Program-made: the position numbers and the translations under genes
The notes under the pieces: model-generated
Database searches by the model: none
Told to the model about the DNA's origin: nothing
What the model saw: the letters and a program-made list of their open reading frames with translations, nothing else
Part shown: positions 55,410 to 58,799 of the stretch, one piece after another
Numbering within the stretch: position 1 is the stretch's first letter
Layout of the letters: each line of letters begins with the position of its first letter
DNA from: Podarcis liolepis
Taxonomy: Eukaryota
Length of the DNA: 64,000 nt
NCBI GenBank assembly: GCA_965112155.1
Contig: OZ218104.1
Strand: one strand, 5' to 3'

Positions 55410-55601
<192 letters not shown>

Positions 55602-55743
55602 TTAGATGGTGGGTGCATAGCCAATCTAGGAATGAATCTTTTAAATGTTCCAAGAGTTGCAATTCCATAAGTGGCAGAAGTTATTATGAAAATAAACAGT
55701 CTTGCAAGGTCCTGCTTTTGAAACAGTAACATATATTTACATA

Positions 55744-55854
55744 GTCAAAATAAGAAAAATTCCTTCCAGTAGCACCTTAAAGACCAACTAAGTTAGTTCT
55801 TGGTATGAGCTTTCGTGTGCATGCACACTTCTTCAGATACACAGATATATTCAG
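55744..55854 (-). mobile_element. Short Penelope-type element
   Basis: Near-identical to 43363-43461 in the opposite orientation; 13-bp TSD ATATATTTACATA (55731-55743 and 55855-55867). Confidence 0.75.
55803..55840 (-). ncRNA. Minimal type I hammerhead ribozyme motif
   Basis: GUAU-CUGAAGA-A-GUGUGC-AU-GCACAC-GAAA-GC-UC/AUAC: both core boxes, stem II, stem I (GUAU/AUAC) and a palindromic AGCU in place of stem III. Confidence 0.65.
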
Positions 55855-58590
55855 ATATATTTACATATTTATCTTGGGTCTGAAATTGCAATAGGTAGGG
55901 AAGTGGGATTAAAGGTCAGAGTGTGGAGACTATTTTTTTACAGCATCTATTCCACACTTTTCATGTGAAAGGGTTGGATAGACACTTCCCTGTCAACCTC
56001 ATTTGGGGTTAAAAACGGGAGTCTCATGCTTCAAGCTTGATCCAGGATATTACTGGGCCCGCTGAAATCATAGGAATGATTTGCTGAAGCTGGAAGGCAA
56101 CAAAATATGTTGGTAAATGAGGGACTCTCCAACTTCCCAAGCTGGATTCAAAATACAATGACAAGGAGGATAACCTAGGACATTTGGAGCAGCTTTAATG
56201 TGTTGCCTTCTCAATTACTTAGGAGTAGATATGCTTCTGTTACTCTTTCCTCAAAATTTTGTCCTTTTAATTACAGTACCAGAAGGTGGGACCAACAGAA
56301 GTTGTTCTTTTGTTTTGCAATTTTTACGCAGGAGCTCTTCAATAAATAATTAACCCTTTATTGACTAAACTACCAGGTAGTCAGCCCAATTTTGTGTTAA
56401 ATATTTGCTGGGAGATCCCTCTAAAATCCACAACCAGCAAGGGGTAGCTTTAACACATGGCTTTATTTGGTTTTATGACTTGAAGTTTGCATATTTGTTA
56501 TATTTGGGGTTCCTCGGTGAAAAATAGAATAAAAATTAAGAGTATACAAAAGTTATTTGACTTCATCTTTTTTCCCCTCTGAGAATTCCATCAGAAAATA
56601 ATAGCAAAAACAAAAAGCATGTTTTGATTTTTTACGGCTAAGAAAGATTATAAATGGCCAAGGGCTGTTCTGATTATCATTTTATTTTATTTTAAACTTT
56701 CCATCCCTTTGATGAAAGTGCTGGTTGCAAAGTGAAACTAGCTTGTCTATGCTACTGTGAGAAAAGAATGGGCTCTGATAAGGAGACAGGCAAGTCAAGC
56801 TTTTAAGGCAGAGATTGTAAGATCTTAAGGTGGAGATTAAGTTGTTAATAAGACCAAGAACATTCAGTATGGTAAAACACTGTTGGACACCCCACTGACC
56901 ACTGGCATTGTGCAGCAATTATTGGATGAGCAACTAAAAGAGGTAAGAGCTGAGGTGGATAAGATGGTGAATGAAAATGGACATGGGGAAGATGAGGTTA
57001 AAAAAGACACAGAACCTTTGGAGAACAATATTGATAAAGTACTGTCACAACAGGAGAGTGGAATGGTAAAGGTGGAGACAGTAGATGATGAAATGGAGAG
57101 GACCTTCACACAGGTGCATAGAGAAGTAAAACAGTCAAGCAGTGGACTTATGAATGTTGGAAAAGTGGAATGAAACCATGGACTGAGAGATTGTTCTGAG
57201 TTGGCAGCTAGAGCTGAGAAAGGGTTCTGTGTACAATTTGGAATGAATTTAGAAGAAAAAGCTACCAAGCCTCTGGCAAATCTTCTGGGGGGGGGGGGAA
57301 GCAGAACTGCAAAGATCCCACCCCTAAATTAGGATGGAAAATCACAGCCATAGAAATGGGATCAGAAGATATAGAACTGGGTGTGAATTAATGAATATAC
57401 AATAAGGAAATAACTATGGATTACTGTTTCAATATATGACCACAGTGGAGAGAGTCCTGTGTGAATAAAGATGAAAAGTTCTTGTTCTTCAGCATTGGAA
57501 GTAAAGTTGTTGTGCTAAACTGAAGGAAGACTATTGTGGACATGTACTGATGATAATAATAATTGGAGAACCCCTTTTAGACTTTTTGTGTGGAAGGGAA
57601 AAATGAATGAACTTGAGAAGTCTGAAGACTGGGAAAATATTGCCTAGCAGAAAGAGGAACAACTGGATACTACCCTGGAGTGAATACTGTGAATATTTTG
57701 AATAATCCTTAAATGATATACCTGACAGATGGAGCCCTTTTTATTTCTATCTCTTTTATTATTTTTATCTTCCTGCTTCTTTTTCTTCTTTTTTTCCTTG
57801 CTTTGCTTTTGTTTCTGTTTTGCTTATTTTGGTGTCCTCTAATCTGGGTTACTAAGGGAATTGGACACACATGAAGGTGATGGATGGTTGATGAAGGGCC
57901 CTGTGTGAGAAGTGGGGAAGGAAAGATATCCCAAGGTGGGAAGCTGGGAGAAGAGAAGCTCCAAGGTAAGAGCTGGAAGGGTCCACCTCCTTCTGTGTGA
58001 GACAAGGATTAAAATTTTCCTTTGAGATAGGACTTAGTACTTCCTTTGCTCTTCCTTTCTTTTTCTTTTTCTATTTAGATTAGTTTTTTATTGTACTGTA
58101 TGATGAAAAGATTCAACAAAATTTAAAGAAAAAGTAAATAATAGCAGACTTCTGAAAGCATACATACACAGAAAGTTGCTATAAAACATACAAATGTGGT
58201 TCCACAGTAGTCTTAGTAGATTAGACAAGCAAAAAACTGTCATAGTGTGATTGGTATTCTTTTACTGCTCTGTTGTGGCCATTATCTTACTGCCTGCCAA
58301 TTGCCAACACGAGCAACTTATGTCCTTGATCACTTCTGAACGACCTCATTGTGAAAAGGCTTTCCAATTAACCATTGGTCTTCCAGAAGAATTATGTACA
58401 TGTCTAGAAGTAGCAATGTGCTCAGTGGACAAAACTGAGAAACCTTTACTCATATCACTAATGCAAAATGTGGATGAACCCTTTCTCTCCCTTACCCTGA
58501 AAAATGTGCATAGGAGTGTAAAGAGATCCATTCATAAAGATCAACTTTAAAAGGATAGATAATGTGTTCAGAGAATGACAGGGAACCTAC

Positions 58591-58799
58591 TTCATGGAGG
58601 GTAAGTGTCGTAGCACCACATCAACAGCATGAACAGGGTTAGTGCTGATTGGCTTGTCTAATTCCAGAGGTTCAGGCAAGGTTCGTCCTGTCAGAACCTC
58701 ATGCAGCAAGTGCCAGCTCACCCGGGAAACAAACTTTATTGACACCTTGAAGGGACGATCTTTACCACCTTCTCCAGGCAATGTTACATCCAAATCAAC
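58591..58799 (-). CDS. AGO3: Argonaute-3 exon 4 (209 nt)
   Basis: [69 protein letters not shown]; includes the AGO3-specific N-domain insertion. Confidence 0.97.

Follow-up and report, generated by a model that had tools for sequence, protein, structure and literature searches.

A minimal hammerhead motif in AGO3 intron 4 of Podarcis liolepis lies in a short, probably inert leader copy of a young Neptune-like Penelope retrotransposon

Intron 4 of AGO3 in the lizard Podarcis liolepis (assembly GCA_965112155.1, contig OZ218104.1) contains a 111-bp insertion that is very probably a 5′ leader copy, lacking a promoter, from a young Neptune-like Penelope-like element (PLE), likely to have landed in this gene by chance and likely to be inert. 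The insertion carries a motif with the sequence features of a minimal type I hammerhead ribozyme, here in a solo leader fragment of the element. It spans approximately the predicted transcription start of the element to one base before its start codon, and thus includes neither promoter nor ORF. Positions of the features discussed are collected in Table 1; the window is the whole stretch of 64,000 nt that was analysed, and comparisons with published systems follow the available portions of the sources cited.

Table 1. Features of the AGO3 insertion, its hammerhead motif and related copies nearby (window coordinates unless marked as extended)
Feature	Position	Strand	Basis or detail
AGO3 coding exon 4	58591..58799	-	70/70 residues identical to human AGO3, PDB 5vm9
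AGO3 intron 4, 3,030 nt, GT...AG	55561..58590	-	Exon positions; numbering from first coding exon
Insertion, 111 bp: 5′ leader copy (a portion of the pLTR) from a probable Neptune-like Penelope retrotransposon	55744..55854	-	Identity to sibling copies
5′ junction stutter, 12 nt	55843..55854	-	Match to native copies begins at insert nt 13; stutters alike in other copies
Target-site duplication, 5′ side of element, 13 bp, AT-rich	55855..55867	+	ATATATTTACATA
Target-site duplication, 3′ side of element, 13 bp	55731..55743	+	ATATATTTACATA
Minimal type I hammerhead motif	55803..55840	-	Sequence, fold, 9,879 exact genomic copies
Hammerhead stem I, 4 bp	55840-55837 with 55806-55803	-	Sequence
Hammerhead CUGAAGA box	55836-55830	-	Sequence
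Hammerhead extra A	55829	-	Sequence
Hammerhead stem II, 5 bp plus 4-nt loop	55828-55815	-	Sequence
Hammerhead GAAA box	55814-55811	-	Sequence
Hammerhead palindrome AGCU	55811-55808	-	Sequence
Hammerhead C17	55807	-	Sequence; predicted cut 55807/55806
Second leader copy of the family, lying antisense in a later intron of AGO3, GAAA changed to AAAA	43363..43468	+	
Inverted pair in AGO3 intron 1 (L095): antisense arm intact, sense arm without CUGANGA box	72,608-72,805 (extended)		
Intact sense hammerhead copy in intron 1 of neighbouring AGO1 (L099, G000:C7)	113,386-113,423 (extended)	-	

The coding exons of AGO3 were placed by short motifs on the window and the neighbouring stretches of the assembly, and are located at 78881, ~65.6k, ~60.5k, 58.8k and 55.56k in extended window coordinates. 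The 3′ splice site of intron 4 follows ~245 nt downstream of the predicted hammerhead cut. The insert was also considered as the source of a cryptic 3′ splice site; this was rejected, as the upstream CAG of the element is missing from the AGO3 copy. Examination of the family insertions of the gene revealed no second intact sense copy within AGO3, and the intact sense copy in AGO1 belongs to an inverted pair with a threefold 5′ stutter. Elsewhere in AGO3 intron 4, a 110-codon stop-to-stop open frame (56841–57173, plus strand, antisense to the gene) is acidic and has a strong G skew.

Nucleotides 13–111 of the insert are identical to copies L023 and L024 at 99 of 99 positions, and the insert matches the leader of the full-length copy L086 except for a 2-nt length difference in the T tract. 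Aligned to the element leader, it runs from −2 (where +1 is the first base of stem I) to one base 5′ of the ATG. The 12 nt that precede the native match are not element proper; they are built from short bits of the first bases of the element and of the target, and may have arisen by template switching during 5′ joining. Four nucleotides of the 13-bp duplication that adjoin the insert on its 3′ side (TATG) also fit the continuation of the element. This microhomology makes the 3′-side border ambiguous by 4 nt. Several claims of the first-pass annotation are thereby confirmed: the sense orientation of the motif inside AGO3 intron 4, by the exon and intron positions; and the perfect 13-bp target-site duplication, with one border carrying the ambiguity just described. 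A recent Penelope-like insertion bearing a minimal type I hammerhead is supported, as the parent element was found and 99 of 99 nt equal two other copies.

On the minus strand, 55840–55803 reads GUAU CUGAAGA A GUGUG CAUG CACAC GAA AGCU C AUAC, in keeping with the motif and the predicted cut that the same annotation had described. The CUGANGA, GAAA and UH boxes and the G10.1–C11.1 pair are all present in sequence and fold. Relative to the available description of minimal hammerheads (PMC4209133), the motif also has the unpaired base between 9 and 10.1, a palindromic 15.2–16.2 and a helix I within the 4–5 bp expected. The stem II with its loop (55815–55828) forms a perfect 14-nt palindrome. The covariance-model check that had been proposed did not favour the assignment: no Rfam family, hammerhead included, matched the motif region at gathering score, and the three weak matches at E<=10 were none of them related to hammerheads. 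The bare core pattern occurs in the window at chance level (7 matches against 5.0 expected), and folding z-scores for motif and insert are unremarkable (−0.44 to +0.94), so that fold energy gives the hammerhead no support.

The parent of the insert is a 3,008-bp tandem unit with the order ORF end, ~145 nt, TATA box, hammerhead, ATG, ORF. In the element numbering, a TATATAG begins at −33 and the A of an initiator-like TCAGT stands at −3; the hammerhead occupies +1 to +38 with the cut at +34/+35, and the ATG is at +97. The single ORF of 910 aa combines a reverse transcriptase (RT), a CX4CXXC linker and, at the C terminus, a GIY-YIG domain; Pfam recognizes RVT_1 (E 1e-11) and GIY-YIG (E 2e-5), and a PDB search with the ORF returned weak RT matches alone (E >= 0.045). 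The linker is kept in all six relatives aligned. In a protein search in which 150 of 908 candidates were scored, several lay in 926-codon open frames with the 3,008-bp tandem period. Within L086–L093 the hammerhead motif stands at both ends of these frames, and thus sits in the pLTR of an autonomous PLE; longer copies link the motif to the end of the GIY-YIG frame. Full-length units (L086, L088, L089–L093) retain intact 910-aa ORFs and often form tandems paired head to head. The family shows partial tandems, inverted 5′ copies, an optional tail of 30–40 nt and short target duplications. Three full ORFs are 100 % identical when rounded, and this near identity suggests that the hammerhead-bearing family is young and probably active. 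The nearest named relatives of the parent ORF (L086:3819-6548) are turtle proteins at 66–70 % identity, with most others listed at ~50 % or less. A CX2-5CXXC linker is given as a mark of both Neptune and Nematis elements (PMC8557442); the Neptune-like placement is by this linker motif, shared with Nematis.

Among known systems, the closest counterparts of the motif are the minimal hammerheads of metazoan PLEs (Cervera and de la Pena 2014, PMC4209133), with which it shares the core boxes, the G10.1–C11.1 pair, the extra base between 9 and 10.1, the palindromic 15.2–16.2 and a 4-bp helix I. Those hammerheads are likewise located in pLTRs, occur as thousands of solo dispersed copies and are known from turtles and snakes. 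The present motif differs from them, as far as they are described in the available text, in a 5-bp helix II within a perfect 14-nt palindrome, although a closer reptile motif may exist. Its family is also nearly invariant, as in a recent burst, whereas theirs are heterogeneous. Neptune-clade elements with an endonuclease (EN+ PLEs; PMC8557442, PMC3846280) resemble the parent in having a single RT and C-terminal GIY-YIG ORF, a CX2-5CXXC linker, partial tandems that form pLTRs, inverted 5′ copies, an optional tail of 30–40 nt, and a TATA box with initiator in the pLTR, whereas the AGO3 locus holds the leader alone. The Poseidon element PAc of Anolis carolinensis (Frangieh et al. 2024, PMC11167929) is similar in its two 3′ ends ~30–40 nt apart, both-strand insertion, AT-rich targets and uncleaved RNA template. 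However, the PAc ORF starts inside stem II, so that the cut falls in coding sequence, whereas in the present element the 5′ leader contains the entire hammerhead, 62 nt ahead of the ATG; the protein here also has the Cys linker, which Poseidon lacks according to the available text of that paper. Intronic type I hammerheads are known in amniotes (RECK, C10orf118/CTCL, DTNB), but those have been conserved in different species and show cleavage in vitro (PMC6155905, PMC10761166), whereas the present family is high-copy, very young and without stem III. Non-LTR retrozymes are also non-coding, hammerhead-bearing and derived from PLE pLTRs, yet they are tandem repeats with at least two ribozymes (bioRxiv 10.64898/2026.07.22.740005), and the AGO3 locus has one unit with a target duplication. 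The insert was for this reason, a single hammerhead unit at the locus, ruled out as a retrozyme. In the green anole, insertions of Neptune and Penelope elements are documented as polymorphic (PMC7561263).

The ends of short copies were scored in the first C1 matches to the 22-mer at +56 to +77, a sample of 60 loci and 91 distinct pieces (the last 9 of 100 listed places were left out) drawn regardless of 5′ structure. The 5′ ends are strongly clustered: 28 pieces extend beyond −8, 34 end in −7 to +4, 15 in +5 to +33, none in +34 to +36 and 14 in +37 to +55. Thus 77 of the 91 pieces span the cut site and none starts at it (+34 to +36). Expressed as loss per nucleotide, this is 7.2 % in the 11-nt interval −7 to +4, against 0.75 % downstream and 0.34 % upstream. 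Exact genome-wide counts anchored at +26 follow the same course, with 14,666 copies from +5, 8,744 from −2, 6,073 from −3 and 4,776 from −7; 67 % of hammerhead-bearing copies are lost across the 11-nt interval at the predicted TATA/initiator start, and 31 % in the step from −2 to −3 alone. The 22-mer at −14 to +8 occurs 5,405 times in the genome and the TATA 22-mer 3,791 times. A genome-wide search for ends at the cut site, with a pattern requiring foreign bases directly before +35, gave 73 junction-type matches against 62–70 expected from background truncation, i.e. no excess. Fourteen of the 73 make up seven perfect palindromic head-to-head junctions centred there (e.g. L200/L201, L204/L205, L219/L220 and L223/L224), which possibly reflect a small or rare fraction of cleaved RNA, or AT microhomology. 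An apparent pile of 5′ ends at −92/−93 is spurious, arising because the reference copy differs there by subfamily; these pieces were scored simply as extending upstream. In 9 of 11 pieces that start at −2, a T replaces the element's A at −3, by non-templated addition or microhomology (L031–L060, L100–L129, L160–L199).

At the other end, with pieces scored as having a tail or none, 47 of the 91 have their 3′ end in or close to the T tract that precedes the ATG, like the AGO3 insert, and 44 have a tail of ~30–40 nt. Target duplications of at least 8 bp flank 52 of 65 insertion clusters (mode 12–13 bp), and 39 of the 65 are head-to-head inverted. These 3′-end classes, duplications and inversions fit the biochemistry reported for Anolis Poseidon, namely priming inside uncleaved RNA at two sites and on both strands (PMC11167929). 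The family signature of 12–13 bp duplications, inversions and T-tract 3′ ends also supports the origin of the AGO3 insert as a leader copy.

The pile-up of 5′ ends suggests that the short copies are run-off cDNAs of an uncleaved mRNA leader and not random truncations, the transcription start being one predicted from sequence and the exact 5′ end being blurred by microhomology with inverted partners. In the literature searched, with Repbase and most subscription journals outside its coverage, this run-off reading of solo pLTR copies was not found. TATA and initiator motifs in the pLTR have been described for rotifer Penelopes (PMC3846280), and an internal promoter for the Penelope of D. virilis (PMC2377424). 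A less probable though substantial alternative is that the pile-up marks something other than an RNA start: either a 3′ splice site at the TTTCAG upstream of stem I, or self-priming on an antisense template. The sequence before stem I does fit a pyrimidine tract with CAG, and in D. virilis Penelope an intron ends at helix I (PMC4209133). Antisense self-priming has been proposed for head-to-head palindromes (PMC3846280), and many −2 junctions here show GTGT microhomology with the inverted partner. By eye, however, of the 19 pieces with ends at −4 to −1 not one runs into a shared exon upstream on the same strand; one of them, L169, runs into its own target duplication. Both versions of the alternative also have to contend with simple, non-inverted insertions, which likewise start mostly at −4 to +7, and with the TATATAG placed 30 nt before the A at −3. 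Thirty nucleotides is the usual spacing from TATA box to initiator.

The first-pass annotation called the RNA of the AGO3 copy potentially self-cleaving; that it is likely to cleave itself is not supported: stem III is absent, stem I is rare in context, the active dimer is disfavoured, and none of the 91 sampled pieces starts at the cut. In fold predictions, stem I has a pairing probability of 0.01–0.21 in four intron contexts, compared with 0.7 for the bare 38-mer alone. Predicted energies are −11.1 kcal/mol for the double-hammerhead dimer, −30.6 for the stem II duplex dimer and −6.8 for each monomer; the stem II duplex dimer is thus the more stable of the two dimers by ~19 kcal/mol, and the active dimer is weaker than two monomers as well, in a nearest-neighbour prediction that omits protein help and tertiary contacts. 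Published results point the same way: no cleavage was detectable for the minimal monomer, with low activity in dimers (PMC4209133); one of nine Xenopus dimers cleaved (bioRxiv 10.64898/2026.07.22.740005); and the Anolis Poseidon hammerhead cleaves only with the protein of the element, is dispensable for insertion and, in the available text, has no RNA-seq reads ending at its cleavage site (PMC11167929). Self-cleavage of the AGO3 copy is therefore modelled as unlikely, given the missing stem III, the rare stem I, the palindromic stem II duplex and the lack of an excess of ends at the cut site. The caveat of the earlier annotation, that a lone monomer may be only weakly active, is the decisive one.

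The stem II palindrome is a peculiarity of the young family; it is absent from older hammerhead families of the same genome, and a strong RNA–RNA duplex is predicted for it. Such a predicted duplex could join element transcripts into dimers or stand in the way of the active fold. At least two such older, decayed families exist, with a 6-bp stem II of the GTGGRC...GTCCAC and GAGTTC...GAACTC types (L130–L159). Copies of the young family are almost invariant in the motif, and are uninformative on covariation of the stems. A degenerate pattern with a 14-nt spacer, 2 longer than that of the young family, recovered the older relatives together with five indel variants of the young family. In the older relatives stem I is paired at 62 % against 48 % when shuffled, and the free positions of stem II at 71 % against 54 %, above all shuffles, figures that use 30 of 40 matches, have the core and G10.1–C11.1 fixed by the pattern and are inflated by related sequences. 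Pair swaps are seen between T-A and C-G and between A-T and G-C in stem I, and between A-T and T-A in stem II. Subject to the same caveat of relatedness, such compensated stems support a real structure in the lineage, and purifying selection on the motif within an active lineage is plausible.

The genome of 1.57 Gb contains 9,879 exact copies of the 38-nt hammerhead (4,999 forward, 4,880 reverse; none for the reversed control), or one per ~160 kb, and leader pieces of the family number more than 16,000 (16,473 matches to the 22-mer at +56 to +77). At the mean density the probability that a gene of 44.7 kb contains a sense copy is 13 %; therefore ~13 % of genes of the length of AGO3 would hold one by chance. 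Given this abundance, the meaning previously attached to the AGO3 location is not supported, and neighbouring AGO1 has a sense copy too. The first 114 kb contain four exact 38-mers at three sites, above the genome mean in a post hoc comparison (P = 0.006); against the first 5.8 Mb of C1, where the density is 17 per Mb, the same local density of four motifs gives P = 0.13, and density is uneven. Vertebrate AGO3 is an Argonaute of the miRNA pathway, not a PIWI protein, and for that reason an anti-transposon angle on the insertion is weak.

Two further readings would give the copy a function. It may be a conditional ribozyme, silent alone and cleaved when element protein, or abundant element RNA pairing through the AGCU, is present (e.g. 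in the germline), so that AGO3 and many other pre-mRNAs are cut in bursts of element expression. Its core is intact, many copies hold intact parent ORFs, protein-assisted cleavage was demonstrated for the Anolis Poseidon hammerhead (PMC11167929), and retrozyme sequences are depleted from Xenopus introns (bioRxiv 10.64898/2026.07.22.740005). The Anolis protein, however, needed RNA extending 172 nt into the ORF (PMC11167929), and if this requirement transfers across clades the AGO3 copy stops short of it. Moreover, even the element's own RNA leaves no excess of ends at the cut site, and a trans dimer is disfavoured relative to the stem II duplex. Co-transcriptional splicing, in addition, often tolerates cleavage that falls well 5′ of the branch point. 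Such conditional cleavage is accordingly rated improbable. The alternative of a domesticated regulatory ribozyme of AGO3, comparable to the intronic hammerheads that amniotes have conserved in RECK and C10orf118/CTCL, is favoured by the intronic, sense-strand position in an amniote host, and such cases are known (PMC6155905). It has almost nothing left of its probability once the sibling copies are considered, as the motif is identical to thousands of dispersed copies, high in copy number and not single or low, and lacks the canonical stems of RECK-type ribozymes. The perfect duplication and the absence of any difference from siblings in 99 nt make the AGO3 copy too young for domestication. 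Counted against an inert copy are the intactness of the motif and the presence of an intact sense copy in both AGO3 and AGO1. A broader version, in which latent hammerheads left by an active Neptune element in the order of a thousand introns, those of AGO3 and AGO1 included, are switched on by element protein or RNA and cut host pre-mRNAs, among them those of the silencing machinery, is a highly improbable conjecture.

Under the preferred reading of a chance, inert leader copy, the protein of the element would have nicked an AT-rich site with a 13-nt stagger. Reverse transcription would then have been primed inside uncleaved element RNA beside the start codon, with a 4-nt microhomology, and the cDNA would have run ~100 nt to the RNA 5′ end and been joined there by template switching. 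More generally, a capped transcript primed within its first pLTR would yield run-off cDNAs of 100–135 nt, like the insert in the window. The AGO3 copy would presumably be transcribed only within AGO3 pre-mRNA; it would not adopt the active form, and splicing of the intron would proceed as usual. The active form is not expected because the copy has no stem III, no second sense copy within the gene and no downstream ORF RNA of the kind needed by the Anolis protein.

As a property of AGO3 the insertion carries little weight, being an ordinary event for so abundant a repeat. The family, in contrast to the single copy, is of wider use: young, with intact full-length copies and ~10,000 identical motifs, it offers a well-powered test of whether the minimal hammerheads of PLEs cut in vivo. 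If they do, introns should be poorer in intact sense copies than in antisense copies or in those with a broken core. The sharp clustering of 5′ ends at the predicted start, with none at the cut, adds genomic support from a second PLE clade to the view that priming is internal and uses uncleaved RNA; run-off products of this kind would account for the mass of solo pLTR fragments.
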